Shown here: in pieces, positions 46,808 to 63,556 of the stretch
Layout: the number at the start of each line of letters is the position of its first letter
Position numbering within the stretch: position 1 is the stretch's first letter
Source: Arenicellales bacterium
GTDB taxonomy: Bacteria; Pseudomonadota; Gammaproteobacteria; Arenicellales; JAJDZL01
Direction: 5' to 3'
Assembly (NCBI GenBank): GCA_965200765.1
Contig: OZ241380.1
Span: 1,106,417-1,170,416 of the forward strand
DNA: 64,000 bases
Notes under the pieces: generated by a model
Databases searched by the model: none
What the model saw: the letters and a program-made list of their open reading frames with translations, nothing else
Told to the model about the DNA's origin: nothing
Translations under genes and position numbers: made by a program

Positions 46808-47836
46808 ATGATGGTTTTACTGAAAAAATTGTTGTTCAGCGCATCAGCTGCACTATTTGCCGGCACGGGTTTTCTGGCATCGGCAGTTGTTCTGGCCGAT
46901 GGGCATGGCGACTATCCAAATCGACCAATCACAGTAATTTGCTGCTATGGCAAGGGCGGTGGCTCGGACCAGTCGGTGGATGCCATTGCAGGACCCGCGG
47001 CCGAAATCATGGGTGCCAAGATCAACAAGATTAATATTCCCGGTGGCGGTGGCAGCAATTGCTTGCCTGAGTTCCAGCAGGCACCCGCAGACGGTTACAC
47101 GCTTCTGCAACACATTGACACGCTTCCGTCAAAGTATGTCGAAGGCACGATTGATTTGAATCCGGTTACTGACCTGGAACCACTTGTGATTATGAACGTT
47201 GCCCCGACGATGCTGTTCATCAAGTCTGATGACGAGCGATTTTTGACTAACGGTGAGGCAGATTTTGACAAAGTGCTGGCTTATGCCCGGTCTGAAGAAG
47301 GCAAGATGACAGTATCCAACATCAATATTCCGATGGAATTGGTTAGCATGGCCGTGTTGGAGAAACACTTTGGCATCAAGGTGAAACAGGTTCTGAACGA
47401 CAAGGCTGCCCAGCGCTATGGCGTGGTGATTGGCGGACAGCTTGACGTGCTTATGGAACAACCGGGCGATGTCAAGAAATTTGTTGAAGCGGGCCAGTTG
47501 ACGCCGGTACTGGCGATTTGGCCGAATCGATTTGAAGCGTATCCAGATACCAAGTCAACCGGACAGGATTATGGGTTAGACTGGAATCCGTTGTTGCGTT
47601 TCCGCGGAATGTTCGTCAAGAAGGGGGCTCCCCAAGAAATCGTTGACTATCTTGCTGGCGTATTTACGCAAGCCTACATGTCGGATGAGCATCAGGATTT
47701 TATCAAGCGCAAGAACCTGGATATCGTGGATTCGTATCGTAGCCGGGATGACACTGCAGGACTGCTGCAGGAAGCCCTTGGGGTATACGCGGATGCATTT
47801 CGTGATCTGGGTATGAACGTCCGAGAAGGATTCTAA
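46808..47836 (+). CDS. tctC: Tripartite tricarboxylate transporter substrate-binding protein (TctC/Bug family)
   Basis: Signal peptide, then YPNRPITVICCYGKGGGSD (Bug-family N-terminal motif). Followed by tctB and tctA. Confidence 0.85.
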   Translation: MMVLLKKLLFSASAALFAGTGFLASAVVLADGHGDYPNRPITVICCYGKGGGSDQSVDAIAGPAAEIMGAKINKINIPGGGGSNCLPEFQQAPADGYTLLQHIDTLPSKYVEGTIDLNPVTDLEPLVIMNVAPTMLFIKSDDERFLTNGEADFDKVLAYARSEEGKMTVSNINIPMELVSMAVLEKHFGIKVKQVLNDKAAQRYGVVIGGQLDVLMEQPGDVKKFVEAGQLTPVLAIWPNRFEAYPDTKSTGQDYGLDWNPLLRFRGMFVKKGAPQEIVDYLAGVFTQAYMSDEHQDFIKRKNLDIVDSYRSRDDTAGLLQEALGVYADAFRDLGMNVREGF

Positions 47837-47860
47837 GGTTTCAAACTCCTATTTTGTTGA

Positions 47861-47897
47861 CCGTCGGTGATTTATCAATCATCGACGGAATTTTTTT
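47861..47897 (+). terminator. Rho-independent terminator/attenuator between tctC and tctB
   Basis: 12-bp stem (47861-47872 pairs with 47877-47888, one G-U pair), a 4-nt loop (tatc), then aaTTTTTTT. Confidence 0.7.
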
Positions 47898-47923
47898 GTT
47901 GCAAGACTAACTGGATTTGATAA

Positions 47924-48463
47924 ATGGGCGATTCCAAGAAGCTATCTGCTCACAGGCGTAAAGGTGCCATTGAAGGCGGTTGCTGGTTGGTATTCGCAAT
48001 TCTGGCCTACGTTTACACATTCCAGTTTGATGCACCGCAAATCGGCTTTCAATTGGGTCCGGCATATTGGCCGCGGCTGATCATCATTGGAATTGTGATT
48101 GCGGCGGGCTGGACCATCTACTCGAATCTTGTCGGTATCACAGAGGGAAAAGAGGGTGAAAGTAATAAAGTAACCCCCCAAGCATCGAAAAAAGTTGATA
48201 TTCGTGTTGCACTGATCTTCGCGTCACCGGTTGTGTACGTTATTTTGATGCACCAGTTCGGATTTTTGCTGGTCACTCCATTTTTTCTGTTTTTTTACAT
48301 GAAACTGCTCGGAGTACAAAAGTGGCGAACGCTGTTTATCATTACAACTTTCGTCTATGCAACCATTATTTTGGTATTCGTACGGCTGATTTTCACTTAT
48401 ATGCCTCCGGGCAGAGGAATTTTCCATACGATGAACGGTTACATTGTCGGATTCTTTAGCTGA
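47924..48463 (+). CDS. tctB: Tripartite tricarboxylate transporter small membrane protein TctB
   Basis: 179-aa protein with four hydrophobic helices between tctC and tctA; its stop overlaps the tctA start. Confidence 0.75.
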   Translation: MGDSKKLSAHRRKGAIEGGCWLVFAILAYVYTFQFDAPQIGFQLGPAYWPRLIIIGIVIAAGWTIYSNLVGITEGKEGESNKVTPQASKKVDIRVALIFASPVVYVILMHQFGFLLVTPFFLFFYMKLLGVQKWRTLFIITTFVYATIILVFVRLIFTYMPPGRGIFHTMNGYIVGFFS

Positions 48464-49974
48464 TGGAAGATTTTTTAACCGGAACTGCCTTGTTGTTCAC
48501 CAATCCCGCCGGGATTGTAATTTTCATTGCTGGCTTGCTTGGTGGGTTGGTGTTTGGCGCGGTACCGGGTTTGAGTATGCTTACGCTTGCAGCGGTGCTT
48601 CTTCCGTTTACTGCATGGATGTCGTCAGAACATGCAATCATGCTGTATGGAGTGATTTATGTCGCGGGTGTATATGGTGGTGCCATCACTGCAATTCTGT
48701 TCAACATTCCAGGTTCGGTAGAAAACGCTCCAACTGCATTCGATGGATATCCGATGACCCGCAATGGACAGTCCGGCAAGGCGATTGGATATGCCGTTAC
48801 ATGTTCTGCCATTGGCGGAACACTTTCTGCGATTGCCATGATGGCGTTTACTGAACCGGTTGCGAATTTCGCCATCAAAACATTCGGCTATCCGGAGATT
48901 TTTGCATTGGTATTTTTTGGACTGGCAGTGGTTGCCGGCATCGGTACGCGATCGCTGGCCAAGGGATGGTTGTCGCTGTTGCTGGGGTTGATGATTGGCG
49001 CAGTCGGCAGCGACCCGGTCAGCGGAGTGCCGCGCTTTACATTCGGTACGCTCTACATGCATGGCGGAATTCACTTTATTCCACTAATTCTGGGTTTCTT
49101 TGCCATATCGGAAGTTTTTATGCAAGGCACGCGACTTGCGAAAGGCCAATATGAAGCACCGATCGTATCGGTCAATTATCCCAGTTTTATCGAATTCTGG
49201 AAAATGAAGTTCGTTGTTGTTCGCTCGGCACTCATTGGCTTTTTCTGCGGGGTTTTGCCAGGCATCGGTGCTACGCTGGCCGCATTCATGTCGTACAACG
49301 AAGCGGTTCGTTGGTCCAAGACACCTGAAAAATTCGGTACCGGCATACCTGAAGGGGTTGTGGCGCCTGAAACTGCAAACAACTCGGCTACCGGTGCGGC
49401 GATGATTCCGCTGTTGGCACTGGGTTTGCCGGGCGGGGCGTTGACAGCAATGATGATTGCGGTATTCAATCTGCACGACATGGATATTGGCCCTTTAATC
49501 ATGGTGGAAGCCCGAGACCTGGTCTGGGTGCTGTTTGCATCAATGTTTTGGGCCAGCCTGGCGATATTGCTATTGGGGGTTGTCGAAGCAAAGGGAATTG
49601 TCAATTTGCTCAGAATACCTTTTCCGATGCTGGCGCCGGTCATATTGGTGTTTGCAACGATTGGAGCGTTTGCGTTGCGCAGCAATATCATTGATATCTA
49701 TACGATGTTCATTGCGGGGGTATTGGGCTATGTCCTGAGAAAGAGGGATTATTCAATTCCGGCCCTTGTAATGGGGGTTATTCTGGGAAAGATCGGAGAG
49801 GAAAATTTTGCCTTGTCGCTGGTACTGATGGACTACAACTTTTTCCAGTTTTTTACCAGTCCTATCAGTGCTGTTCTGATTTCAATCGGCATTCTGACGA
49901 TTGTGATGAATCTGGTTCGTCATCGAAAAATGTTTGGTTCCAAGTACGCCGAGTTCGAGGGGGAGAATCAGTAG
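48463..49974 (+). CDS. tctA: Tripartite tricarboxylate transporter permease TctA
   Basis: 503-aa polytopic membrane protein with the TctA/DUF112 pattern (GAVPGLS..., GVLPGIGATLAAFMSY). Confidence 0.88.
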   Translation: MEDFLTGTALLFTNPAGIVIFIAGLLGGLVFGAVPGLSMLTLAAVLLPFTAWMSSEHAIMLYGVIYVAGVYGGAITAILFNIPGSVENAPTAFDGYPMTRNGQSGKAIGYAVTCSAIGGTLSAIAMMAFTEPVANFAIKTFGYPEIFALVFFGLAVVAGIGTRSLAKGWLSLLLGLMIGAVGSDPVSGVPRFTFGTLYMHGGIHFIPLILGFFAISEVFMQGTRLAKGQYEAPIVSVNYPSFIEFWKMKFVVVRSALIGFFCGVLPGIGATLAAFMSYNEAVRWSKTPEKFGTGIPEGVVAPETANNSATGAAMIPLLALGLPGGALTAMMIAVFNLHDMDIGPLIMVEARDLVWVLFASMFWASLAILLLGVVEAKGIVNLLRIPFPMLAPVILVFATIGAFALRSNIIDIYTMFIAGVLGYVLRKRDYSIPALVMGVILGKIGEENFALSLVLMDYNFFQFFTSPISAVLISIGILTIVMNLVRHRKMFGSKYAEFEGENQ

Positions 49975-50002
49975 CTGGAAATGTTGGTAGTCCAGTCACA
50001 GT

Positions 50003-50863
50003 ATGATATCAATCAAATCACCTTGGTATAAAGAGTTTGACAAGTTTGTCCGCGCGATCCAAAATTCAGTCCTGATTGCGGCGCCTTACATTAATCGGCA
50101 ACCCGTAGAACGATTGGTGAGGGAATTGCATAGCAAGGATTTGGTGCAAATTGATGTATTGACGAATTTGGACAGCACTCATCTCATCAATGGTTCTGTT
50201 GATGCGGGGGCATTATTCTGGCTATGTCAAGAGGTTCCAGGAACAAGTGTCTGGAGCTTGCCACGCTTGCATGCGAAAGCCTATGTAGCTGACAATCGTA
50301 CTGCAATTGTTACTTCTGCAAATTTCACCAACAACGGACTCACTCGAAATTACGAACTGGGGGTGGAAATTTCAGATTCACGATATATTGACGACTTGGT
50401 GCAAGATCTTCAAGAATACAAACAGTTAGGATGTTGTGTACCGCAAAGAATTTTGATGGAGTTAGATCAGATAGCAGGAGAAGCCAGGCGGATACAGGTA
50501 AATACTGATTCTTCCACTCGTTCTGTCTATTCGACTGAAATTGAAAACTTTTTGAATCAATTGGATGATGTTTTGGTTGATTTGAGAACTCTGCCCGGAG
50601 AATCCAGAACCACAATTTTTGGACGGGCAATTCTTTATGTTTTAAGTCAATATGGTCCTTTGACCACCAAGGAGTTACAACCGATTATTCAGAATCTTTA
50701 TCCGGATTTGTGCAGTGAAGGTGAGCAACGAATTATCAATGGCGTCGCTTTTGGTAGTAAATGGAAGCACGATTTCCGGAATGCTCAGGTGAGTTTGAAA
50801 CGTAGCGGAAAAATTCGTAATGATGGTGGCCGTGGCGGCAAGTGGTTTGTAAAACCACAGTAA
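50003..50863 (+). CDS. Single-HKD phospholipase-D-family (Nuc/BfiI-type nuclease-like) protein with C-terminal wHTH-like domain
   Basis: One HxK(x)4D(x)6(G/T)SxN motif: LHAKAYVADNRTAIVTSANFTNNG. The C-terminal ~90 aa (ILYVLSQYGPLTTKELQPIIQ...WKHDFRNAQVSLKRSGKI) resembles Mrr-N-type winged-helix modules. Confidence 0.7.
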   Translation: MISIKSPWYKEFDKFVRAIQNSVLIAAPYINRQPVERLVRELHSKDLVQIDVLTNLDSTHLINGSVDAGALFWLCQEVPGTSVWSLPRLHAKAYVADNRTAIVTSANFTNNGLTRNYELGVEISDSRYIDDLVQDLQEYKQLGCCVPQRILMELDQIAGEARRIQVNTDSSTRSVYSTEIENFLNQLDDVLVDLRTLPGESRTTIFGRAILYVLSQYGPLTTKELQPIIQNLYPDLCSEGEQRIINGVAFGSKWKHDFRNAQVSLKRSGKIRNDGGRGGKWFVKPQ

Positions 50864-51240
50864 GATGATTATTCGTGTCTCTGACTATAAGTAGGGGAAG
50901 CTCAAACTGGCATAAGTTCAGCAACCACTTTTGCCCAGTCAGTGTCCGCCGACGAAGGTGTCACCACTTTGACTAGCCTCTTGAGCTGTATGCTTCTGTG
51001 TCCAAAAATTGGTAGGGTTCTGCTACGGTTTGATTTATCCTCGCCGGCATGCTCAATCAGATAGTTGTGTTGTGTTATACGACAATCCTTTACAATAGCT
51101 GGAGACATGTATTAAACAAGTGGGTCAAATTGCTGATTGAGGACAAAACACTCATGGCGGTTCATCGAAAGTAATCTCCGAATGAAGTACGGTGAACCAG
51201 GAAGGTCAAGTTTTATGCAAACTGAATCAAGGATGGCTTC

Positions 51241-53070
51241 GTGACAGAATCATTGATCTGGCTGGCATTTTGGATGGGGATCATCAGTGCTTGCTCACTT
51301 CCTATGGGTACATTGACAACCTTGGTGTGGAAGCCCAGCGACCGGGCGGTCGGCATACTGATGTCTTTTGGCGGCGGTGCGTTGCTCGCTGCACTTACCT
51401 TGGACCTGGTTGGTGCCGCACTGGCAAGAGGACATTTTGTATCGTTGGCCTTAGGTTGTATTGCAGGGGGTATCATCTTTGTTGCGCTTGACCAGATGGT
51501 AAACAACCACGGTGGATTTCTGCGCAAATCCTCAACTGTGATTCAATATGTTCACCGACAAAGAAGAGCTCGCTTCAAGAAAGTAATCACTGCAATTGAA
51601 AGAGCAACCATATTCCACAATCTGCCAAGTGAAGACGTGGAGTATCTTGCAAGGTCCGTAGAACATGAAATGGTAGAAGCAGGGGTAACAATAATTGCGG
51701 CTGGTGACCCCTCTGAATTCTTGTACATCGTGGAAAAAGGCGAAGTTACGATTACTGATCCGCGTATGGGAAGACAACTTTCAGGGGTTTGGACCGATGG
51801 TCAAACGTTTGGCTGGCATGCATTCATTACCGGCTCGCCTAACACGCGCAATGCTGTTGCAACGGAGGAGAGCAGTATTTGGAAACTGTCAAGAGAGCAT
51901 TTTCAGAACTTGCTTCATCAGTCTTCAAACTTGGTGAATGCAACCAAAGATGTATTGACCAGTGACCTGGTTGCCGAATATCTGATGGACCGTCAAGGAC
52001 TAACTCGGCAACAGTATACGGAATGGCGTGACAATGCTGTTCAAGTATTGGAAAATGACAATGAAATTCTTAACGCAATCTCGCTAAATCGTCATCAGGA
52101 AGAGTTTGTCAACGTTTCAAACAGAATTGGCCGCATACCTCTTTTTCAAGGACTGTCACGAAAAAAACTTGTTGCTGTCGCTGACCGTTTGTACTGTGTT
52201 CGTTTCACTCAAGGGGACATAATCTTTAAAGAGGGCGATCTGGCCGACCGGTTTTATATTGTGAAATCTGGCCGTGTTGCGATGGTGAGTTCTGATGACC
52301 CTTTGGGGCAAAGATTGACCATAGGTGAAAATCAGGCCTTTGGTGGCAAGTCATTTATTACCGGCGCAACGCGTGCTAACAGTGTAGTCGCTTCAGTTGA
52401 CACGGAGTTATGGGTGTTGCGAAAAACAGATTTCAACGCCTTGCTTAAGCGATACCCCAGATTTCAAAAGCAACTTCGGTCTTATCTTGCTGATGAAGAA
52501 ATTTCGGAGTATCTTGAAAGTCGAAAAGGGCTTGAGTCGGACAAGGTGGAACAATGGATCAAGGAAGCAACCGAAAGCACAAAACTAAGGCAGATGACTC
52601 CGTCGGTGGCGGACATGGCAAAAAAGATCGGGCATGGTGGTGCGCCGATGGCGATTTGGTTGGGGATCATGCTGGATGGAGTTCCTGAATCGCTTGTAAT
52701 CGGTAGCTCGCTTATCCACTCGCATGTCAGCTTGTCATTGATTGCAGGGTTGTTCTTGTCCAACTATCCGGAAGCCTTGTCCAGTTCGATCGGCATGCGT
52801 CAGCAGGGCATGAGTTTCATGCGCGTATTTATCATGTGGGGCTCACTTACGATTTTGACAGGCATCGGTGCGGCACTGGGGAACATTTTCTTTGTTGGTG
52901 CAGATCCACATTTGTTTGCAGTTGTTGAAGGAGTCGCGGCCGGAGCGATGCTTACAATGATTGCGCAGACAATGGCACCCGAAGCTTATATCAAGGGTGG
53001 TTCTGTGGTCGGTTTGTCAACCTTGTTAGGGTTTCTGGCAGCAGTTTTCTGCAAGACCCTTGGCAGTTGA
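51241..53070 (+). CDS. ZIP-like metal permease interrupted by two cyclic-nucleotide-binding (CAP-effector) domains
   Basis: N-terminal part: three hydrophobic helices. Middle part: two cNMP-binding-like domains (FHNLPSEDVEYLA...GDPSEFLYIVEKGEV...FGWHAF; and IPLFQGLSRKKL...GDLADRFYIVKSGRV...FGGKSFITG). C-terminal part: five helices with ZIP-like LDGVPESLVIGS and VEGVAAGAML. GTG start. Confidence 0.7.
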   Translation: MTESLIWLAFWMGIISACSLPMGTLTTLVWKPSDRAVGILMSFGGGALLAALTLDLVGAALARGHFVSLALGCIAGGIIFVALDQMVNNHGGFLRKSSTVIQYVHRQRRARFKKVITAIERATIFHNLPSEDVEYLARSVEHEMVEAGVTIIAAGDPSEFLYIVEKGEVTITDPRMGRQLSGVWTDGQTFGWHAFITGSPNTRNAVATEESSIWKLSREHFQNLLHQSSNLVNATKDVLTSDLVAEYLMDRQGLTRQQYTEWRDNAVQVLENDNEILNAISLNRHQEEFVNVSNRIGRIPLFQGLSRKKLVAVADRLYCVRFTQGDIIFKEGDLADRFYIVKSGRVAMVSSDDPLGQRLTIGENQAFGGKSFITGATRANSVVASVDTELWVLRKTDFNALLKRYPRFQKQLRSYLADEEISEYLESRKGLESDKVEQWIKEATESTKLRQMTPSVADMAKKIGHGGAPMAIWLGIMLDGVPESLVIGSSLIHSHVSLSLIAGLFLSNYPEALSSSIGMRQQGMSFMRVFIMWGSLTILTGIGAALGNIFFVGADPHLFAVVEGVAAGAMLTMIAQTMAPEAYIKGGSVVGLSTLLGFLAAVFCKTLGS

Positions 53071-53356
53071 AATTGAACGGCTTTTACTGATGGGACACGT
53101 TTCAGCGTTTTGCCTGGAACTGAGTTAACAATTCGGTCTGCCAATTTTGTCTTGTTTTGCTATCGTGTGTTGTATGAATCAGATAGTAAAAACGCTGTAC
53201 CAGGAGATTTTCAGATTTATAATCATGGAGCAATAACGGGTAGAAAATTTACGGGAGAGAGTTGCTATTTTCATTGCAAATGGAAATTGGCTTGCAACAT
53301 CAAACAAAGCAAATACACGGATTTACTGCGTTTAAATATTCAGTATATTCAATAGG

Positions 53357-53380
53357 ATAAAGTTTAATATTAAACTTTAT
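53357..53380. promoter_or_regulatory. 24-bp perfect palindrome ATAAAGTTTAAT|ATTAAACTTTAT, ~100 nt upstream of the amidohydrolase gene
   Basis: The reverse complement is identical over all 24 nt. There is no loop and it is AT-rich, so it looks more like a dimeric-regulator operator than a terminator. Confidence 0.45.
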
Positions 53381-53483
53381 TCTCAAATTTAGTCGAGTAC
53401 AGTTTTACTTGATGATTGGAGTTGCATTGCAAAACTCTTCGCATGTATGATCTACCAGACAAATTAATTTCAACGGGGGAATT

Positions 53484-54710
53484 ATGAATTTATCAGTGAA
53501 TGGTGAGAGGCTGTGGAATTCTCTGATGCGTATGGCAGAGATCGGGGCCACTCAGAAAGGCGGTGTATGCCGATTGGCATTGACAGATCTGGACAAGGAA
53601 GGCCGGGATTTGCTTTCACAGTGGTGTGATGCTGAACAATGCGAGCGACGAATCGATCCAATGGGCAACATGTTCTTCAAACGTTCGGGTGTTCAGGATT
53701 CGGCGCACGCGGTCGGGATGGGCAGTCATTTGGACACCCAGCCGACGGGTGGAAAATTCGACGGTGTTTACGGAGTTCTGGCCGCTTTGGAAGTAATTCG
53801 AGTCTTGAACGAGAACGACATCTCTACACGTCTTCCGGTAGAACTTGTGGTCTGGACAAACGAAGAAGGTGCAAGGTTTCCCCCGGCAATGATTGGTTCC
53901 GGGGTATATGCAGGAGCATTTGACCTTGAGTATGGACATGGACGTGCAGACCCCGACAACAAAACGATCGGCGATGAACTGAAGCGAATCGGCTATTTGC
54001 AGAACACTTTACCCAAGGACCACGGGTTTTCGGCATTTTTTGAAGCACATATTGAGCAGGGGCCGATTCTGGAAGCGAAAGGGCTTTCAATAGGTGTAGT
54101 TACAGGAGTCCAGGGAGTGCGCTGGTATGACATTGAAGTGACTGGCGAAGAAACGCATGCAGGACCGATGCCGATGGAAATGCGCAAGGATGCCATGCGA
54201 GGTGCTGCAAAACTGCTACCGGAAATCTATCAGATTGCCAAGCGGCACGAGCCCGATGGGCGCGTAACCATTGGCGAGTTTCACATTCAGCCAGGTTCGC
54301 GCAATACAGTTCCGTCAAAAGCAGTGTTTTCCATTGATTTTCGTCATCCGGATGAAACAATGTTCGATCAGATGCATACAGATCTGATTGAGATTGTTGA
54401 AAAACTGAATCAATCAAGCAATGTCGAGTTCCGTGTTGATAATTTTTGGCGAGCGGCACCAACGAAATTCAATGAAACGTGCGTAAATACAGTTCGCCGC
54501 AGTGCTGAAAAGTGCGGCTTTGAATCCATTGACATGGTTAGCGGTGCGGGGCATGATTCGGTTTACATCGCGCGTGTTGCGCCAACTGCCATGATATTCA
54601 TTCCTTGCGACGATGGTGTTAGTCACAGTGAGATAGAAAATACTTCGCCAGAATTTGTTGAAGCGGGCGCCAACGTGCTGCTTCATTCTGTTCTGGAAAC
54701 TGCCGGGTGA
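53484..54710 (+). CDS. M20-family amidohydrolase (N-carbamoyl-amino-acid / allantoate / beta-ureidopropionase type)
   Basis: GSHLDTQPTGGKFDGVYGV (cf. AllC/AmaB), VVWTNEEGARF, and the C-terminal GAGHDS. Confidence 0.85.
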   Translation: MNLSVNGERLWNSLMRMAEIGATQKGGVCRLALTDLDKEGRDLLSQWCDAEQCERRIDPMGNMFFKRSGVQDSAHAVGMGSHLDTQPTGGKFDGVYGVLAALEVIRVLNENDISTRLPVELVVWTNEEGARFPPAMIGSGVYAGAFDLEYGHGRADPDNKTIGDELKRIGYLQNTLPKDHGFSAFFEAHIEQGPILEAKGLSIGVVTGVQGVRWYDIEVTGEETHAGPMPMEMRKDAMRGAAKLLPEIYQIAKRHEPDGRVTIGEFHIQPGSRNTVPSKAVFSIDFRHPDETMFDQMHTDLIEIVEKLNQSSNVEFRVDNFWRAAPTKFNETCVNTVRRSAEKCGFESIDMVSGAGHDSVYIARVAPTAMIFIPCDDGVSHSEIENTSPEFVEAGANVLLHSVLETAG

Positions 54711-55687
54711 ATTTGATGAGCAAACAGCTTGATGTTCTTGGTATCGGAAATGCGATTGTCGATGTATTCCGGTTTGTTGATGATGGCATGCTTGAGGACA
54801 TTGGTTTGTCCAAAGGCACAATGACTTTGGTTGAATCGGAGGCTGATTCGCAAATTGATGAAGTAGTGAAGCCTGTCGCGCAACTTTCCGGCGGTTCGAT
54901 TGCCAATACATTGTTTTGCATCGCGTATCTTGGCGGTCATTGCCACTTTATCGGAAAAGTAGGCAATGATGAATTGGGACGGCTGTATGCTTGGGAAATG
55001 GAACAAGCCGGGGTGAGGTTTGCTACTGCTTTTGCCGAAAATGGTTCGACAACCGGGCGTTGCGATGTGTATGTCACCCATGATGCAGAAAGAACCATGC
55101 GTGTTTCCCCCGGTGCGATGTCCAAATTATCGGTCCGTGATTTTAATGAAGAAGCGATAAAGAACGCAAAAATCCTTCTGTTGGAAGGGTATTTGCTGGA
55201 TCTTGAGTGGGCCGGTGACCTGATTGATCAATCTATGGAAATAGCCCAACACAACAACACCGAGATTGCAATCAGCTTGTCAGACCCACAACTCGTTGAA
55301 CGACACCGCGACAAATTTCTTCAAATCGTTGAAACCCATGCAGAGCTGGTTTTTGCGAATGAGCTTGAAGCTTATCAACTCTGTCAAACAAACAATTTGT
55401 CGGATACATTGGCGTTTCTCCAAACAAAAGCACGCCATGCTATCGTCACACGAAGTGAGAATGGATCTGTTGCTGTATCGAACGGCGAGCAATTTGTTAT
55501 GGAAGGCCAGACAATTTCCAAGGTAGTTGACACAACCGGCGCGGGCGATGCCTATGCAGGCGGTTTCCTGTTTCAGTATTCCCGCGGAGAACCGATTCGG
55601 GCCTGCATGGAAATGGCAACGAAACTGGCATCCGAGGTTATCCAGCATATTGGAGCGCGGGTGGATGCCAAGCTTCCACCGCGCTAA
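54707..55687 (+). CDS. PfkB-family kinase (adenosine-kinase-like)
   Basis: N-terminal VLGIGNAIVD and PfkB signature 2 DTTGAGDAYAGGF. It overlaps the upstream gene by 4 nt. Confidence 0.85.
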   Translation: MNLMSKQLDVLGIGNAIVDVFRFVDDGMLEDIGLSKGTMTLVESEADSQIDEVVKPVAQLSGGSIANTLFCIAYLGGHCHFIGKVGNDELGRLYAWEMEQAGVRFATAFAENGSTTGRCDVYVTHDAERTMRVSPGAMSKLSVRDFNEEAIKNAKILLLEGYLLDLEWAGDLIDQSMEIAQHNNTEIAISLSDPQLVERHRDKFLQIVETHAELVFANELEAYQLCQTNNLSDTLAFLQTKARHAIVTRSENGSVAVSNGEQFVMEGQTISKVVDTTGAGDAYAGGFLFQYSRGEPIRACMEMATKLASEVIQHIGARVDAKLPPR

Positions 55688-55702
55688 TATCTGGATTCGT
55701 GA

Positions 55703-56182
55703 TTACAACAATTTCAGTATGGACTCTGCATCGCTGACCTCGTATTTTCCCGGTGCTTCCCGATTCAACGCAGTTACGACACCGTCTTCAACGATCATTG
55801 CGTATCGGTCCGAGCGAACTCCAAGTCCTTTGTCGGTCAAATCCAGTTCCAGCCCTGCCGCATTGGTGAAGTCAGCGCTTCCATCGGCGAGCATCAAGAT
55901 ATTATCCGCATTTTGCATCTCTCCCCAAGCACCCATGACAAACGCATCATTTACCGAAAGGCAGGCGATCGTATCAACTCCTTTGCCGAACAGATTGTCT
56001 GCATTGACTACATAACTTGGCAAATGTGCTTTTGAGCAAGTAGGTGTGAATGCACCGGGCAAAGCAAACAGAACAACCTTCTTGCCATTGAAGATTTCAT
56101 CTGTGGTGATTGCCTTCGGACCGTCACCGGTCATGTAGTAGAGCGTTGCTTGAGGAACTCTTTCTCCAACATGAATTGTCAT
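55703..56182 (-). CDS. Prx5-type peroxiredoxin
   Basis: FALPGAFTPTCS peroxidatic Cys motif; 159 aa. Confidence 0.9.
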   Translation of the reverse strand: MTIHVGERVPQATLYYMTGDGPKAITTDEIFNGKKVVLFALPGAFTPTCSKAHLPSYVVNADNLFGKGVDTIACLSVNDAFVMGAWGEMQNADNILMLADGSADFTNAAGLELDLTDKGLGVRSDRYAMIVEDGVVTALNREAPGKYEVSDAESILKLL

Positions 56183-56320
56183 TTTTGCATCTCCTTCAGG
56201 TTAAAGTTCTTAGATATTGGAAATTGGTTCATCCATTATAATTGGGTGAATTGAAACAGGACTAACACCTTCAGCATTCCATGCTGGAGAATTCATGAGA
56301 ATTCAGGATATTGCTCGTTC

Positions 56321-57685
56321 ATGAATCTTGACACTGCATTGAGAGACTACAAAGAACTCATCAAACGTCATCCGGAAGTTCGCTATATTGACGCAATCTT
56401 GTTCGATATTTGTGGGCAAGTGCGGGGCAAGAGAATATCGGTCGAGGATGCAGAGAAAATCTATACTTCAGGAATTCAGATTCCTGAAAGTGCGTTTTTG
56501 CTGAATGTGGACGGGCTAAGTACTGATCCATGCGGCCGGGGAATAGCCGACGGTGATCCGGATGGAACGTTGCTACCGATCCCGGGAACTACTGCTGTGG
56601 TTCCATGGGGTGCGGATAAAACCGCGCAGGTACTGACCAGTCTATGGTCCGAAGACGGAACTCCGTCTCAGGTCGATCCCAGAAATATCGCCACGGCTAT
56701 GGTTGATCGGTTCAGCACACTCGGTTACAACCTTTCCATCGCATTTGAACTGGAATTCTACTTGCTGGATCAGGAGTTGGACCAACGCGGATGCCCGCAA
56801 GCACCAGTTTCGCCCCGGACAGGCAAGAGATACGATGAATTTCAGGTGTACTCAATGGAAGATTTGGATGATCAAATGGAATTCCTGGACGGCGTACAAA
56901 AGTGTTGCAAACAACAATGCATTCCTGCTACAGTGATTGTCAGCGAATATTCTCCATCGCAGTATGAGGTGAATTTGCGGCATGTTGATGATCCCGTGCA
57001 AGCGGCAGACCATTGTCTGCTGTTGCGGCGTGTGGTTCAAGCGGTAGCCAAGTCGCAAAATTTGAGAGCGACGTTCATGTCCAAACCGTTTCTTGATTTG
57101 TCAGGCAATGGTATGCACTTGCATGTAAGTCTGCAAACGAGTTCCGGAGAGAATGCAATGAAAGGGGAGACAACACTCGGAAGCAGTGTCCTGCGCCATG
57201 CAGTCGGCGGACTGTTGCACACAATGGCGGATATGATGGCAGTTTTTGCGCCGAACGAAAATTCTTATCGACGCTTCATCGCTGGAGAGTATATTCCCGT
57301 AACAAAAACCTGGGGTGCAAACAATCGTTCGGTCGCAGTTCGTATTCCCGGTGGAGACAGTGCAAATCGACGTCTCGAGCATCGCGTAGCAGGGGCGGAT
57401 GCAAATCCTTATCTGGTGTTGGCCGCAGTGTTGGCGGGCATGCATCACGGTCTGACCAGCAATGTCGATCCCGGGCCACCATCACCCGGTTTGAATGAAA
57501 GTTTAACGATGGATCCGGATGTGCCGTTTGACTGGGAATCTGCCATTGACCGGTTTGAAAACTCCGAATTCGCCGCCAACTATCTGACCCCCGATTATGT
57601 GAAACTGTACTCGGAATTGAAACGGGGAGAACGGAAGAGGTTTTACGAACATATTACGGACCGCGAATACAACTGGTACTTGTAG
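56321..57685 (+). CDS. Glutamine-synthetase-family gamma-glutamyl-amine synthetase (PuuA-like)
   Basis: GS catalytic-domain pattern (FELEFYL, GNGMHLHVSL, NRSVAVRIP, LEHRVAGADANPYL). Its size and the adjacent PuuB-like gene suggest a gamma-glutamylation pathway. Confidence 0.8.
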   Translation: MNLDTALRDYKELIKRHPEVRYIDAILFDICGQVRGKRISVEDAEKIYTSGIQIPESAFLLNVDGLSTDPCGRGIADGDPDGTLLPIPGTTAVVPWGADKTAQVLTSLWSEDGTPSQVDPRNIATAMVDRFSTLGYNLSIAFELEFYLLDQELDQRGCPQAPVSPRTGKRYDEFQVYSMEDLDDQMEFLDGVQKCCKQQCIPATVIVSEYSPSQYEVNLRHVDDPVQAADHCLLLRRVVQAVAKSQNLRATFMSKPFLDLSGNGMHLHVSLQTSSGENAMKGETTLGSSVLRHAVGGLLHTMADMMAVFAPNENSYRRFIAGEYIPVTKTWGANNRSVAVRIPGGDSANRRLEHRVAGADANPYLVLAAVLAGMHHGLTSNVDPGPPSPGLNESLTMDPDVPFDWESAIDRFENSEFAANYLTPDYVKLYSELKRGERKRFYEHITDREYNWYL

Positions 57686-57697
57686 ATTGCAGCGACG

Positions 57698-59014
57698 GTG
57701 TCTGGGAAAGCAATTGAAATTGAGCCGCATGTAGATTCGTACTATGTCGCTACTGCAATCGGCATGCGGGAGTATGCACCGCTTGACAAATCGGCAACTT
57801 GCGACATTTGTGTAATTGGCGGCGGATTTACCGGAGTTTCAGCAGCACTGAATCTCGCGGAACGCGGTTATCGGGTTGTTCTTCTGGAAGCCAATCAAAT
57901 CGGCTGGGGTGCATCCGGCAGAAATGGCGGTCAGATGGGAAGCGGCATGGTCGACTCGCAATCAGATCTTGAAGAGCTATATGGATTCGACAAAGCACAA
58001 CAGTTCTGGGCGATGTGCGAAAGAGCCAAGAAAGAAGTTCTGGGCAGAATTGAGCGACATGACATTCAGTGCCATTTCAAGCCAGGGATTGTTGGCGTTG
58101 CTTGCACCAATCAGGCAAGCGAGGAATTTCATGCCGAGGTTGAAGATCTGCACAAGAATTACGATTATCTTTCCATTCGCTATCTGAACCGGAACGAGGT
58201 TGGTGAACTGCTTGGTACAGATTTGTATTATGGCGGGCGGCTTGATATGGGTGCCGGACATCTGCACCCGTTGAACTACATTCTGGGTTTGGCGAAAGCC
58301 GCAACACAAGCCAACGTTCAAATATACGAAAAAACCCGAGTTTTGAAATTCACGACAACCGCTGATAGAGTTGCGGTGCAAACATCTACCGGTGTCGAGG
58401 TTCGCGCAAAGTATCTGATACTCGCTTGCAACGGATACCTGAAAGGATTGTCGACGAAACTGGAGAACCTGCTGATGCCGCTGAACAGCTACATTGTTGC
58501 AACCGAACCATTGGACCAAGCAACCACAGAAAAAATCAACAAACGTGATGTAGCTGTATTCGATTCGCGTTTCGATTTGGACTATTATCGTCTGTCGTCG
58601 GACAAGCGACTGCTGTTTGGCGGTGGCGGTAGCTATACGCGCCGTAACATCTCTGACATTCGGTCGCGGCTGCGACGAAATATGTTGATCGTGTACCCCG
58701 AGTTGTCGCAAACCAAAATCGATTACGCGTGGGGCGGCCTAATTGCGATGACCGTCAATGAAATACCGGTTTTCGGTAAATTGGGTGAAAATGTTTTTTA
58801 TGCGCATGGATTTTCAGGTCACGGACTTGCATTGTCGAATTTGGCCGGCAAGTTGATTGCCGGAGCCATTGAAGGTTCAGTCGACCGGTTCAATATTTTT
58901 GCGGATGTAAGACATCGCGCGTTTCCGGGTGGAAAATATCTGAGATGGCCAGTGTATGCGTTGCGTTTACTCTATTATGCAGGTGGCGAGCAAATTCAAT
59001 TCTGGCGAGACTAA
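57698..59014 (+). CDS. FAD-dependent gamma-glutamyl-amine oxidoreductase (PuuB-like)
   Basis: Close positional similarity to my recollection of E. coli PuuB: SYYVATA...CDICVIGGGFTGVSAAL...GASGRNGGQ, LDYYRL, YAHGFSGHG. GTG start. Confidence 0.8.
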   Translation: MSGKAIEIEPHVDSYYVATAIGMREYAPLDKSATCDICVIGGGFTGVSAALNLAERGYRVVLLEANQIGWGASGRNGGQMGSGMVDSQSDLEELYGFDKAQQFWAMCERAKKEVLGRIERHDIQCHFKPGIVGVACTNQASEEFHAEVEDLHKNYDYLSIRYLNRNEVGELLGTDLYYGGRLDMGAGHLHPLNYILGLAKAATQANVQIYEKTRVLKFTTTADRVAVQTSTGVEVRAKYLILACNGYLKGLSTKLENLLMPLNSYIVATEPLDQATTEKINKRDVAVFDSRFDLDYYRLSSDKRLLFGGGGSYTRRNISDIRSRLRRNMLIVYPELSQTKIDYAWGGLIAMTVNEIPVFGKLGENVFYAHGFSGHGLALSNLAGKLIAGAIEGSVDRFNIFADVRHRAFPGGKYLRWPVYALRLLYYAGGEQIQFWRD

Positions 59015-59104
59015 AGAAATCGCTGAAGCAGGTTGGGTTGTCGAAACCGGCGAGCTCATGTTATTCTTGTTGCATCAGAATTAATCAAGTCAAGGATTAT
59101 CAGT

Positions 59105-60496
59105 ATGGCAGAAGTTGCAGTTTCCGTGTCCCGTAGCGGGGCGATTGAAGAATTGAAGGAACTGTTTGGCGAGAGAGTCTCTACATCGGATTCGGCTCGC
59201 CATCAGTTTGGAAAAGATGAGTCTTATCACGAGTCGATACCGCCGGATGCTGTATTTGCACCGCAGTCTACTGAAGAAGTCTCGAATGCAGTACGGATTT
59301 GCGCGAAGCATGCGACTCCAGTGATTCCTTATGGTACCGGTACTGGACTGGAAGGGCATGTTGCAGCCTTGCACGGCGGTGTGTGTCTGAACATGGCCGA
59401 GATGAATGAAATCATACAAGTCAATTCAGATGATTTGGATGTAGTTGTGCAACCGGGTGTGACTCGCAAGCAACTTAATCATCACCTCCGGGATATGGGG
59501 TTGTTTTTTCCCATAGATCCGGGAGCTGATGCCTCACTGGGAGGAATGACTTCCACCAGAGCATCAGGTACAAACGCCGTTCGCTACGGTACCATGCGGG
59601 AGAATGTTCTTTCATTGACCGCAGTGCTGGGGGATGGACGAGTAATCAGAACCGCCAAGCGAGCTCGAAAGTCGGCCGCAGGATACGATCTCACCAGACT
59701 TTTTGTCGGTTCCGAAGGAACTTTGGGAGTGATTACCGAACTGACAGTTCGAATCTACGGCATTCCGGAAAAAATATCTTCCGCAGTAGTCAACTTCCCG
59801 AATCTGGAAGATGCAGTGCAAACAGTCATTGAAACCATACAGCTTGGCATACCGATTGCACGGATTGAATTGCTGGATGACAAAATGATGAACGCGATCA
59901 ACAACTATTCAAAGACGGACTATCCTGAGGAATACACTTTGTTTCTGGAATTTCATGGTACGGAGGTGTCGGTGGCAGACCAGACAGAAACTGTACAGAT
60001 GATAGCCGAGTCGTATGGTAGCGGCTCGTTTCAATGGACGGTTCATGCTGAAGAGCGCAACAAGTTGTGGCAGGCACGCCATGACGCGGCATATGCTGCG
60101 AAGATGATGCGTCCGAATGCCCAGATATGGGCGACGGATGTGTGCGTGCCGATTTCCCGTTTGGCGGAATGTATTATGGAGACCAAGCGAGATATTGAAG
60201 AGTCAAATCTGCTTGCGCCGATAGTCGGTCATGTTGGTGACGGCAACTTTCATTTGGTGCTAGTGGTAGACCATAATGATCCGGAGGAAGAGGACAGGGC
60301 ACAGAGTTTGCATGAGCGAATGGTTATGCGCGCCCTTGAAATGGAAGGTACCTGCACAGGCGAGCATGGCATCGGCTACGGAAAAATGGACTTCCTGGTC
60401 GCCGAGCATGGTGAGGCAATCAGTGTGATGAGAAACATCAAGCAGGCGCTTGACCCGGACAATATTATGAATCCGGGCAAGATTGTTCGAGTCTAA
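59105..60496 (+). CDS. FAD-linked oxidase (D-lactate dehydrogenase/GlcD-like)
   Basis: FAD_binding_4 (PCMH) N-domain (VIPYGTGTGLEGH) and the C-terminal GTCTGEHGIGYGK...DPDNIMNPGK. Confidence 0.88.
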   Translation: MAEVAVSVSRSGAIEELKELFGERVSTSDSARHQFGKDESYHESIPPDAVFAPQSTEEVSNAVRICAKHATPVIPYGTGTGLEGHVAALHGGVCLNMAEMNEIIQVNSDDLDVVVQPGVTRKQLNHHLRDMGLFFPIDPGADASLGGMTSTRASGTNAVRYGTMRENVLSLTAVLGDGRVIRTAKRARKSAAGYDLTRLFVGSEGTLGVITELTVRIYGIPEKISSAVVNFPNLEDAVQTVIETIQLGIPIARIELLDDKMMNAINNYSKTDYPEEYTLFLEFHGTEVSVADQTETVQMIAESYGSGSFQWTVHAEERNKLWQARHDAAYAAKMMRPNAQIWATDVCVPISRLAECIMETKRDIEESNLLAPIVGHVGDGNFHLVLVVDHNDPEEEDRAQSLHERMVMRALEMEGTCTGEHGIGYGKMDFLVAEHGEAISVMRNIKQALDPDNIMNPGKIVRV

Positions 60497-60544
60497 TCCA
60501 ATCGCGCGACTGGCTTAAGTGAAAATTTTGTGCGGATTTGGATT
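60495..60544. terminator. Possible bidirectional terminator hairpin between convergent genes
   Basis: AATCCAA (60495-60501) pairs with TTGGATT (60538-60544), plus partial extra pairing (cgcgc/gtgcgg), followed by TTTT. The loop is long, so this is weak. Confidence 0.3.
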
Positions 60545-60549
60545 TTCGA

Positions 60550-60966
60550 TTAGTCGGAATCGACAGATTGTTTCAGCTTGACGACAACATCAACCTTGTC
60601 AACTGATTTGCCGTCGGGTGGATCAGGAATATTTTCAACTGTAATTTCATCTTCGCTGATATCAGTCAACTCACCCGTTTCTTCATCATAGAAATGGTGA
60701 TGGTGTGATTCCACATTTGAGTCGTAGTACACTTTGTTCGGGTCCACGATGACTTCTCGCAATAGCCCCTTTTCCACAAACAGTCCCAGAGTGTTGTATA
60801 CAGTTGCACGGGATACAGGCGGCCATGGGCCGTTGACATTTCGATAAATTTCCTCTGCTGACATATGTGCATGTTTTACCAGAATGATACGCGCGATTCG
60901 CAAGCGTTGCGGTGTCGGCATTACGCCATGTTCGCGTAAGTGTGAATCCAGGTCAGAGTTATCCAT
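60550..60966 (-). CDS. Fur-family regulator, Irr-like (no Cys, HHHH motif)
   Basis: Fur wHTH (PTPQRLRIARIIL...SRATVYNTLGLFVEKGLL). It has no cysteines, so it lacks the structural Zn CxxC pairs. ESHHHHFYDEETGEL resembles the HHH heme-responsive motif of alphaproteobacterial Irr. Confidence 0.7.
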   Translation of the reverse strand: MDNSDLDSHLREHGVMPTPQRLRIARIILVKHAHMSAEEIYRNVNGPWPPVSRATVYNTLGLFVEKGLLREVIVDPNKVYYDSNVESHHHHFYDEETGELTDISEDEITVENIPDPPDGKSVDKVDVVVKLKQSVDSD

Positions 60967-61063
60967 AGGTTACTCAATTCAATCAGTTTAATTACTAAGA
61001 TAATAATTTCATTATACGATAAATATGCTGACTGTCTAAACTATTTTCAATGAAATTCAAGAA

Positions 61064-61582
61064 ATGACAAATACAGTATGCAGAACTGGAGAATTCATTA
61101 GCGCGATGGTTGCAACCAAGCGAGAAGGTGTCATTCTGGCAATTGGTGAACAACCGTTGAACTATCAGAAAGAGATCCTGTCAGCGTTGGACCCACTTTC
61201 GCGACTGATCGTAAGCCTGAAACCATCCGTTGCAAGATTGCCGGTCGAAACACATCTGGAAACGGATTTGCGAGTGGCTGTGCATCGACAGGATATTCAT
61301 GAGTTTCTGGATGACATCAAGCACCATCGTTTCACATTGGTCATGCTGGGTGAGGAGAGCATCGATGATTCTCTGATCACAAAATGTATTGACATACTTG
61401 AGCAGGGTGGTATGGCACTCGTGCTACGAAGTTTATCGGAAAGCAAGCCACCCTATCTCGGAAACTGCGAGCGATGCTGGTGCGTATCATTGAACTTCTG
61501 CTACCTGATGGTCAAGTCTGACCAGCAGAAAAAACCCGTTCGACGCGGCGGCCGCAGAGCCAGACAGGCTTCGCAATACTGA
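61064..61582 (+). CDS. Hypothetical protein with degenerate class I (O-methyltransferase family 3-like) Rossmann pattern and basic tail
   Basis: GVILAIGEQP (degenerate motif I), RFTLVMLGEE and ILEQGGMALV lie in the order expected for Methyltransf_3-like proteins. C-terminal tail KKPVRRGGRRARQ. The match is weak. Confidence 0.4.
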   Translation: MTNTVCRTGEFISAMVATKREGVILAIGEQPLNYQKEILSALDPLSRLIVSLKPSVARLPVETHLETDLRVAVHRQDIHEFLDDIKHHRFTLVMLGEESIDDSLITKCIDILEQGGMALVLRSLSESKPPYLGNCERCWCVSLNFCYLMVKSDQQKKPVRRGGRRARQASQY

Positions 61583-61586
61583 CACA

Positions 61587-62228
61587 TTGGATACGAAAAC
61601 GTCAACTTCCAGGTTAGCGGAGTGTCTCTCGTTGCATGGATTTGAACAGTACAAAATCATAAACGGCGACATCTGGTATTGCGAGCGATTCCTGGATGAG
61701 GAAACCGCGGTCAGGTTGTTTGAAAACTTGCTGAAATCTACCCGGTGGACGCAACCCGTTGTCAAGATGGGCAACCGGATTGTAAATTCACCCCGGTTGG
61801 CAGCGTGGCATGGAGACCCGGATGCAGTCTATACCTACTCAGGCCTTCGAAATTCGCCTGTGGATTGGAATCCGGCATTAATCGAAATCAGAGACCGGCT
61901 TGAAACCGTTACCGCAATTCGATTCAACAGCGTTCTGCTCAATTATTATCGGGATGGCCACGACAGCATGGGCTGGCATCGCGATAATGAGCCCGAACTT
62001 GGCAAGAATCCGGTAGTTGCTTCAGTCAGTCTTGGAGCAACCCGAAGATTTTTGATGAAACACATACGACAGGACGATCAAAAGATGGAATTTCACTTGA
62101 CGCAGGGTTCAGCTCTGCTCATGATTGGTGAAACACAGCACAATTGGAAGCACAGTGTCCCCAAAAGGCCTGCGATCTCACAACCGCGAATCAATCTGAC
62201 ATTCAGAGTGGTTCAAAGTTTGGCTTGA
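61587..62228 (+). CDS. alkB: AlkB-family Fe(II)/2OG dioxygenase
   Basis: NSVLLNYYRDGHDSMGWHRDNE (HxD), NWKHSVP (distal His), and RINLTFR (2OG Arg). TTG start 4 nt after the upstream stop. Confidence 0.85.
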   Translation: MDTKTSTSRLAECLSLHGFEQYKIINGDIWYCERFLDEETAVRLFENLLKSTRWTQPVVKMGNRIVNSPRLAAWHGDPDAVYTYSGLRNSPVDWNPALIEIRDRLETVTAIRFNSVLLNYYRDGHDSMGWHRDNEPELGKNPVVASVSLGATRRFLMKHIRQDDQKMEFHLTQGSALLMIGETQHNWKHSVPKRPAISQPRINLTFRVVQSLA

Positions 62229-62237
62229 CTCGCCCGG

Positions 62238-63553: not shown

Positions 63554-63556
63554 GAC

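Follow-up and report, generated by a model that had tools for sequence, protein, structure and literature searches.

Gene and locus

A stretch of 64,000 nucleotides from an Arenicellales bacterium (assembly GCA_965200765.1, contig OZ241380.1, positions 1,106,417 to 1,170,416), in the following called the window, was analysed for a gene encoding a protein with an N-terminal phospholipase D (PLD) domain and a C-terminal winged helix. The protein is termed PLD-wH here, and its probable role as a restriction-type nuclease is discussed. Positions of the gene, its domains and its surroundings are given in Table 1.

The gene is located between a transporter operon and a permease gene, as an earlier note on this DNA, made from the letters alone, had reported. 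The gap of 377 nt behind the gene and the antisense open reading frame (ORF) of 68 codons within it, both mentioned in the same note, were found as well. Between the end of tctA and the start of the PLD-wH gene lie 28 nt, in which no terminator was detected. No partner ORF was found beside the gene in the window. The absence of an adjacent methyltransferase could likewise be affirmed, the nearest DNA methyltransferase ORF being 19 kb away.

Table 1 Features at and around the PLD-wH gene, given as positions of the 64-kb window
Feature	Position	Strand	Description or basis
PLD-wH gene, 286 aa	50003..50863	+	ATG start; single-HKD PLD domain, helical hairpin, winged helix
PLD catalytic domain, residues 1-146	50003..50440	+	Foldseek against PDB
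Single HKD motif LHAKAYVADNRTAIVTSANFTNNG, residues 89-112	50267..50338	+	sole HxKx4D match in the protein
Helical hairpin linker, residues 147-199 (helices 148-167, 170-194)	50441..50599	+	DSSP on the AlphaFold2 model
C-terminal winged-helix domain, residues 200-283, distantly Mrr_N-like	50600..50851	+	AlphaFold2 domain model, Foldseek
Recognition helix H3, residues 254-267, WKHDFRNAQVSLKR	50762..50803	+	peak of family conservation
Strain-variable segment, 1,134 bp	49987..51120	.	gene and 257 nt of 3' spacer; blastn against L090
tctC-tctB-tctA transporter genes	46808..49974	+	conserved left flank; Pfam TctC/TctB/TctA on the 99%-identical L082
ZIP-family permease with cNMP-binding domains, 609 aa	51241..53070	+	conserved right flank
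Spacer, 377 nt	50864..51240	.	50864-51120 lineage-specific; 51121-51240 conserved permease upstream region
Antisense ORF, 68 codons, probably not a gene	50902..51108	-	entirely inside the spacer part that L081 and L090 lack
Direct repeat TAGCTGGA, left copy, 8 bp	49972..49979	+	overlaps the tctA stop codon
Direct repeat TAGCTGGA, right copy	51096..51103	+	18 nt before L090 homology resumes

The single-HKD PLD domain

Exactly one HxKx4D motif, as claimed in the earlier note, is present in the protein. It begins at H90, has the full form HxKx4Dx6(G/T)SxN, and the motif quoted in that note is LHAKAYVADNRTAIVTSANFTNNG. A second bare HxK at residue 43 stands without the remainder of the HKD motif. 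Pfam assigned residues 20-137 to PLDc_2 (E=1.6e-14). The family RE_NgoFVII (PF09565), which describes the N-terminal PLD domain of a restriction enzyme, was matched marginally with 24.5 bits against a cut-off of 23.8. No family was matched by residues 140-286.

The full-length AlphaFold2 model, calculated from 47 homologs, reached a predicted local distance difference test score (pLDDT) of 88.7 and a predicted template modelling score (pTM) of 0.81. With the PLD half as query, the top matches of Foldseek in the PDB were NucT (6ehi), Nuc (1byr), Zucchini (4ggj), SauUSI (7clg), PLD3/4 and BfiI (2c1l). E-values ranged from 1e-7 to 4e-5, with template modelling (TM) scores of about 0.7 on the single-domain NucT and Nuc and of 0.15-0.6 on larger targets. 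Pfam and Foldseek thus place the domain with NucT, Nuc, Zucchini, BfiI and SauUSI, in agreement with the single-HKD nuclease of Nuc/BfiI type that had been proposed. TrmBL2, which consists of a winged helix, a coiled coil and a PLD-like domain, was also among the matches of the PLD half.

Between the window gene and its 83%-identical ortholog in the related locus L081, a dN/dS of 0.19 was calculated. The dS of the gene, 0.56, resembles that of the flanking genes (0.43-0.54). The gene is functional and under purifying selection in two lineages, and with a dS like that of the flanks it has passed down vertically since the window and L081 lineages split.

Helical hairpin and C-terminal winged helix

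The PLD domain is followed by a helical hairpin, which might serve as a spacer or as a dimerisation element. Modelled alone, the C-terminal domain behind it reached a pLDDT of 89.9 with AlphaFold2. Its elements (residues 200-283) are ordered as helix, short strand, helix, beta-hairpin, helix and two strands. The top 50 Foldseek matches in the PDB consisted only of winged-helix domains, including ADAR1 Zbeta, PKZ Zalpha, TubR, PadR, histone H1 and cullin WHB. The E-values were modest (0.01-0.1) at a probability of about 1 and TM scores of 0.5-0.65. Whether the C-terminus folds as a winged helix-turn-helix (wHTH) had been left as a question by the earlier note; the confident model and the exclusively winged-helix matches answer it in the affirmative.

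Weak matches to Mrr_N (PF14338) were obtained with relatives of the protein, namely with 7 of 24 (best E 0.0028) and with 31 of 88 more diverse members (best E 1.2e-4); these matches are E-values only, with no score cut-off attached. Besides Mrr_N, no DNA-binding family recurred in Pfam among the 88 members. DpnI was not found with the domain profile at E<=10 among all PDB sequences, 4kyw included, nor was it among the top 50 fold matches. DpnI_C was absent from the Pfam families matched by more than one of the 88 members.

Size, conservation and distribution of the family

Altogether 144 homologs of the protein were identified, nearly all of them full-length with about 280-300 aa, 35-55% identical, and almost none named. 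The winged-helix profile, searched against 1.84 billion representatives, yielded 365 clusters (50% identity). In the best 150 clusters the domain was located at about residues 200-285 of a protein of about 285 aa, or the hit was a fragment of such a protein. Since these best 150 clusters all show the same fusion, the combination of PLD domain and winged helix is a fixed, self-contained architecture. An apparent fusion of 1,007 aa in L071 was traced to a run-on ORF of high GC content; with the true start the protein has the normal length of about 285 aa.

Among 185,579 species genomes, an alignment-based scan detected 372 relatives, whereas a single-protein search of genome contigs found none. 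The analyses of neighbourhood and taxonomy refer to the best 80 of the 372 relatives (loci L001-L080). Loci of near relatives, used for context, were reached through the homologs P0002 and P0003 and through variants of the flanking genes, since neither the window protein nor P0001 had an exact sequence match. The best 80 relatives originate mostly from metagenome-assembled genomes of Dehalococcoidia and other Chloroflexota. The remaining ones among them belong to Acidobacteriota, Planctomycetota, Nitrospirota, Poribacteria, Rokubacteria and several Proteobacteria. The distribution of the family over the phyla is patchy.

In 47 homologs no variation was seen at H90, K92, S105, N107 and E118, and in the 88 more diverse members each of these residues is conserved to at least 90%. 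Among these 88 proteins, PLDc_2 was matched by all 88 and RE_NgoFVII by 61 (E<=10, best 4.5e-8). The mean column identity was 0.58 in the winged helix, 0.45 in the PLD domain and 0.29 in the helical hairpin, the least conserved part. It peaked with 0.73 in the loop and hairpin before the recognition helix and with 0.77 in the recognition helix itself. The helix has the pattern W-K-H-x-x-R-x-A-Q, in which W254 and R259 are invariant and K255, H256, A261 and Q262 conserved to at least 90% in the 88 members. Cys237 is invariant as well. The reading surface is thus constant over many phyla, which suggests a single common ligand for the recognition helix rather than diversified Type II specificities.

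Matches of the window protein in PADLOC and NCBIfam were confined to the generic HKD core. The best were DrmC models (1e-13 and 1.8e-16), followed by weak additional matches to ZacB and MkoB. A DrmC-like accessory nuclease, working in a system of several dispersed genes (DISARM, Mokosh or Zorya, for example), would explain these matches and the shared HKD core. Yet the score for NCBIfam DrmC_I, 60.4 bits, is less than half of the cut-off of 133. No drmA, drmB, drmD or drmE, no helicase and no methyltransferase of such a system was found close to the gene in the window or among the recurrent neighbours in the 80 family loci, and a DISARM context is missing. DrmC has no winged-helix tail, and the tail profile finds only the PLD-wH architecture in its best 150 clusters. 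We consider this explanation extremely improbable.

On plasmids, only distant proteins of 400 aa from Bacillus were found, which are designated as phospholipase D family and are about 22% identical over most of the query. They are encoded at the same position in related plasmids of the Bacillus cereus group (L086 6968-8170 and L087 6986-8188). On one of these plasmids the PLD gene is preceded by a gene with a HEPN domain, on the other by a SIR2-family gene. This plasmid site looks like a defence hotspot.

Strain variation at the tctA-permease site

Four states of the site between tctA and the permease gene were distinguished. The gene together with the 377-nt spacer is present in the window, in L082 (99% protein identity) and in L089 (97.7% nucleotide identity) (state A). 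State B was found in L090; this contig of 605 kb, L082 and L089 all come from one metagenome sample with long-read data (ERZ25070167). Here L090 1-2299 corresponds to window 47689-49986 and L090 4801-17683 to window 51121-64000 with 97.1-97.5% identity (blastn), and between them lies another cargo of 2.5 kb. In L081, the flanks of which are 87-90% identical, the gene (83% protein identity) follows a spacer of 340 nt and is itself followed by 55 nt (state C). In L083, at about 70% nucleotide identity, the order from tctB to glnA is kept and the gene is absent, an AT-rich intergenic region of 290 nt being found instead (state D).

The cargo of L090 (L090 2300-4800), which occupies the site of window 49987-51120, contains three ORFs. 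The first encodes 138 aa with an IS1595-type zinc ribbon. The second encodes a Type II N6_N4 methyltransferase of 308 aa (PADLOC MTase_II, 2.3e-64). It is overlapped by 4 nt by the third ORF of 221 aa, which had no match in Pfam, PADLOC or the PDB and may be a divergent or unclassified restriction endonuclease. The GC content is 0.43 in the variable segment of the window and 0.42-0.43 in both cargos, compared with 0.478 in the flanks.

The replacement in L090, the empty site in L083 and the low GC content of the cargos show that the PLD-wH gene is accessory, and in a strain of the same species the slot holds a module resembling a restriction-modification (R-M) system. A core gene, syntenic across the lineage and with a housekeeping annotation, had been named in the earlier note as the finding that would speak against a defence function; with a swapped cargo in L090 and none in L083, the gene is not core. 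From the alignments of the junctions, the ancestral insert probably consisted of 5' spacer, gene and 3' spacer. The window lineage would then have lost the 5' spacer, of which the first 100 nt or so survive in L081 and L090. The L081 lineage would have lost the 3' spacer, whereby the last residues of the L081 protein were altered.

These results bear on a housekeeping or regulatory role of the protein. It could be a TrmB-like factor, with the PLD-like domain as ligand sensor and the winged helix on an operator, or a nuclease for repair or recombination of the chromosome. TrmBL2 among the structural matches is consistent with this, as are a possible co-transcription with tctCBA across the short gap without terminator and the stable syntenic position in many Dehalococcoidia, described below. 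In TrmB, however, an N-terminal winged helix precedes a PLD-like domain without catalytic HKD, whereas in the present family the domain order is reversed and the full catalytic HKD set invariant. Furthermore, the gene is absent or replaced in close relatives that share the tct and permease genes. Only 372 relatives were found in the 185,579 species genomes, and the GC-poor cargo and the transfer of a cassette between phyla (see below) are those of an accessory gene. A housekeeping role is therefore judged very unlikely.

Around a distant ortholog of the permease (L085 2262-9545), three toxin-antitoxin pairs were observed, namely PSK_trans_fac/PIN, MazE-like/PemK and HTH/BrnT. In other lineages, too, the surroundings of the permease may draw in mobile modules.

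Neighbouring genes of the relatives and mobility

ORFs were called and clustered in the 80 family loci. In about 20 loci of Dehalococcoidia (L001-L032, L088; at about 7100-7850) genes for a HigB toxin and a HigA-like antitoxin are located directly upstream. The HigA-like protein matches the N-terminal 120 residues of PADLOC PD-Lambda-2_B (4e-17). About 25 Dehalococcoidia genomes share one conserved neighbourhood in the order HigBA, PLD, small ORF and methylmalonyl-CoA mutase. Two small ORFs, c12 and c10, are translationally coupled to PLD-wH in 12 loci of Dehalococcoidia each. The upstream c12 of about 103 aa ends 0-20 nt before the start of the gene (L023, L036, L042, L045, L050, L051, L053, L057 and others). 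The downstream c10 of about 107 aa starts -34 to +16 nt from the stop (L004, L007-L009, L013-L015 and others). Neither had a match in Pfam or PADLOC; both could be regulators or partners of PLD-wH.

Surroundings of this kind would also suit a toxin-like or abortive-infection DNase of poor specificity, which is tethered by its winged helix, curbed by low expression or by a partner and released upon infection or stress. HigB and HigA with their link to PD-Lambda-2_B, the coupling of c12 and c10 (gaps of -34 to +20 nt), the Dam-independent toxicity of the published PLD-wH enzyme Aba4572I in E. coli and the failure to over-express PLD-wH proteins agree with this explanation. In the window, however, the gene has no partner ORF, since tctA ends 28 nt upstream and a non-coding spacer follows downstream. 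It has been kept alone under purifying selection in two lineages, and the strongly conserved recognition helix points to the reading of a specific ligand. A DNase of this type is considered unlikely.

Other neighbours are nucleases. A protein of 460-480 aa with an Mrr_cat nuclease domain (cluster c26) is encoded directly upstream in 7 of the 80 loci, and an HNH_2 endonuclease directly downstream in five. The genes for Mrr_cat (about 461 aa) and PLD-wH form a cassette of 2,530 bp, which occurs twice on one Bryobacterales chromosome (OZ251486.1; L033 6527-9056 and L034 6527-9056). The two copies are 99.5% identical and 400 kb apart. Between Terriglobia (L046) and Dehalococcoidia (L024) the cassette is about 71% identical, the flanks being unrelated. 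The pair thus acts as a discrete mobile unit, and it may represent a two-nuclease system that is absent from PADLOC. A leucyl-tRNA ligase gene, known as neighbour of the published PLD-wH enzyme CbaI, was searched for in the 80 family loci and found in none.

Genes or fragments of N6_N4 methyltransferases adjoin in about 6 of the 80 loci (clusters c51 and c63). Downstream of PLD-wH in L024, L046 and L074 lies a methyltransferase fragment from which no complete gene could be reconstructed. The window itself contains an orphan beta-class N6_N4 methyltransferase at 30995-31885 on the minus strand, with a DPPF motif, a Pfam match of 1.1e-34 and weak YhdJ/CcrM-like matches in NCBIfam. It is located between genes for a DsbA-like protein and a short-chain dehydrogenase, and no restriction gene adjoins. 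Its similarity to the methyltransferases near family members is only distant.

Of all 4-bp palindromes, GATC is the one most depleted in the window, with 194 sites observed and 321 expected (observed/expected ratio, O/E, 0.60). Pooled over 72 loci bearing PLD-wH it ranks second after CTAG (O/E 0.70). As the comparison contains no matched control genomes, a link between the depletion and the PLD-wH nuclease is only a hint.

With these data a Type II or IIS-like endonuclease of the BfiI/NgoFVII kind can be weighed. Such an enzyme would cut unmodified DNA sequence-specifically, and the host would be shielded by an unlinked methyltransferase, for instance that at 30995-31885. RE_NgoFVII above the cut-off in the window protein and matched by 61 of the 88 members, BfiI among the structural matches, methyltransferase genes or fragments beside some relatives, the orphan methyltransferase in the window and the GATC depletion are in line with it. 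In contrast, most of the 80 loci have no adjoining methyltransferase, and several of the adjoining ones are short fragments. The methyltransferase of the window is found 19 kb away among metabolic genes and is distant from those associated with the family. The reading helix is near-invariant at an overall identity of about 30%, the opposite of the diversification seen in Type II enzymes, and the C-terminus is a winged helix and not the B3-like barrel of BfiI and NgoFVII. An enzyme of Type II is regarded as improbable on these grounds.

Comparison with known systems

Fusions of PLD domain and winged helix have been described before. Helbrecht et al. (2024, Front Microbiol; PMC11037411) proposed PLD-wH fusion endonucleases as Type IV enzymes, and predicted 27 of them. 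Two were examined by experiment: Aba4572I, which stems from a member of the Anaerolineaceae, and CbaI, which stems from a Chloroflexi bacterium. With CbaI, transformation was reduced in Dam+ but not in Dam- E. coli (PMC11037411). The winged helices of these proteins were described as relatives of the C-terminal domain of DpnI, and the tested ones were selected for the N6-methyladenine (6mA)/GATC motif (PMC11037411).

The comparison of Aba4572I and CbaI with the present family is based on the published description and not on sequences. They agree in the architecture of PLD domain and winged helix and in the mostly stand-alone genes. They also agree in their sources, Chloroflexi and Anaerolineaceae, since the present family is most abundant in Chloroflexota. 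Just upstream, CbaI has a gene described as a restriction endonuclease and Aba4572I one for an amino-methyltransferase, arrangements that resemble the Mrr_cat-PLD-wH and methyltransferase-PLD-wH loci found here. In contrast to the DpnI-related winged helix described there, the present one shows a weak affinity to Mrr_N, and the searches found no similarity to DpnI or DpnI_C. Furthermore, the published set comprises 27 members, often near Type I methyltransferases, whereas the present family comprises 365 clusters with other usual neighbours.

The Type IIS enzymes BfiI and NgoFVII (NgoAVII) share with PLD-wH the N-terminal single-HKD PLD domain and a separate C-terminal DNA-binding domain. This DNA-binding domain is a B3-like pseudobarrel in BfiI and NgoFVII and a winged helix on a helical hairpin in PLD-wH. 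Moreover, an adjacent cognate methyltransferase is expected for these enzymes, and none stands beside the window gene.

END nucleases combine an N-terminal PLD nuclease with an exchangeable C-terminal sensor and were demonstrated experimentally to act as single-gene, non-abortive defence (2025 preprint, PMC12191111). wHTH is listed there among the alternative sensors on PLD (PMC12191111). END and SauUSI resemble PLD-wH by the HxK PLD head with a C-terminal sensor, encoded by a single gene without methyltransferase (PMC12191111, PMC3141236). Like the window protein, END is not recognised by PADLOC. The remaining parts differ: END has an inactivated EndoIII domain and SauUSI a helicase and DUF3427, whereas the present protein has a winged helix and, with 286 aa, is much smaller. 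With Mrr the family shares a winged helix, weakly of Mrr_N type in 31 of 88 members, fused to a nuclease in a solitary gene without methyltransferase. Mrr, however, consists of an N-terminal reader and the PD-(D/E)xK nuclease Mrr_cat, in contrast to the PLD nuclease and C-terminal reader of PLD-wH.

The kind of PLD plus winged helix is already known, to which the present family adds no more than an uncharacterised member or sub-type. The novel single-gene defence candidate of the earlier note was thus overstated, as PLD-wH proteins were proposed in 2024 (PMC11037411) and PLD with wHTH appears in the END preprint (PMC12191111).

Proposed function

We favour, with moderate confidence, the interpretation of PLD-wH as a solitary restriction-type DNA endonuclease that was acquired horizontally, resides in a strain-variable defence slot and is probably modification-dependent (Type IV). 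The assignment as defence nuclease is firmer than the modification dependence. The description as a solitary, modification-dependent restriction or defence nuclease, given at the outset, is retained as far as fold, solitary position and accessory status are concerned; its modification dependence is what we infer.

According to this proposal, two chains would dimerise via their N-terminal single-HKD PLD domains and thereby form one metal-independent active site. DNA would be cut through a covalent phospho-histidine intermediate, as in the family chemistry of Nuc and BfiI. The Mrr_N-like winged helix on its helical-hairpin arm is predicted to recruit the enzyme to DNA. The mark read there would most likely be a DNA modification that the host lacks, which would result in Type IV restriction of foreign DNA, of phages or plasmids. 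A modification foreign to the host is suggested because no methyltransferase adjoins, the recognition helix is near-invariant and Mrr, SauUSI, END and the published PLD-wH proteins provide precedents.

Several observations weigh against this interpretation. The C-terminus of the window protein has no Pfam match even at E<=10, Mrr_N included, and the affinity to Mrr_N is weak and distant and seems to be present at the family level. The Mrr-N-type winged helix of the earlier note is accordingly supported at some distance for the family, with its 31 weak matches among 88 members, whereas the window sequence itself gave none. With no match to DpnI or DpnI_C, the 6mA/GATC specificity is not transferable to the present family. 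No PADLOC defence model was matched by the whole protein, and no family member was found in the viral contigs and phage records searched. With transporter and metabolic genes as its flanks, the window locus does not qualify as a defence island, and transcription of the gene may be no more than read-through from tctA. The synteny in Dehalococcoidia exceeds the usual stability of defence genes. Finally, Aba4572I was toxic in E. coli with or without Dam, and neither Aba4572I nor CbaI could be expressed or purified (PMC11037411).

A more extended hypothesis is put forward only tentatively, and we hold it to be rather doubtful in its entirety. The family of about 285 aa might be a distinct Type IV family apart from the DpnI-type PLD-wH proteins, with which it was compared by description. 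Its recognition helix, the preceding beta-hairpin and Cys237 might read one modification or DNA structure that is common to invaders across phyla. In some genomes it might act together with Mrr_cat as a two-nuclease cassette. The tctA-permease slot might be a hotspot of defence exchange, with PLD-wH and a Type II R-M module as its alternative alleles within one species.

Modification-dependent restriction enzymes are of interest as barriers to phages and as tools for the mapping of DNA modifications. The design of PLD domain plus winged helix is so far a proposal. The family described here provides candidates of small size (286 aa) and wide distribution in a clearly delimited set, and its unusually conserved reading helix supplies precise residues for mutation. 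The exchange with an R-M module within one species backs a role in defence and offers a ready comparison of methylomes. Should the specificity prove to be a single modified base, the enzyme would be a potential metal-independent reagent. Even if the protein should not prove to be a restriction enzyme, its conserved winged helix indicates a DNA-recognition function in many uncultured phyla. The most useful results are the R-M-like swap within the species, the two-nuclease cassette in other genomes and the sharply conserved recognition helix.

Spacer, direct repeat and further features of the window

The 377-nt spacer aligns with L090 over its last 120 nt and with L081 only over its last 61 nt (51180-51240). 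The lineage-specific part shows no relation to the 5' spacer of L081, has no second copy in the window and does not resemble the neighbour proteins of the 80 loci. No Rfam match and no terminator-like site were found in the spacer, and it folds no better than shuffled sequences on either strand (z = +0.5 and +0.7). A structured RNA, a riboswitch or a terminator was ruled out by the scans of Rfam, terminators and folding energy. The antisense ORF was not matched by any neighbour protein from the 80 family loci. Since it is located in sequence missing from L081 and L090, its status as a gene is not supported.

The direct repeat TAGCTGGA has no further copy in the 64-kb window beyond the two that lie close to the ends of the variable segment. 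Two junction windows of 60 nt would have an 8-mer in common by chance with a probability of about 0.04, which makes the evidence weak, and the left copy is one base off from the sequences of L090 and L081. The pair could be a microhomology used in recombination or a product of chance.

Elsewhere in the window, Rfam 5_ureB_sRNA was matched at 23072-23359 on the plus strand with 81 bits (gathering threshold 40). The match is antisense to an ORF of 567 aa at 21804-23507 on the minus strand, presumably urease alpha, and is probably due to the conserved coding sequence and not to a genuine antisense RNA.

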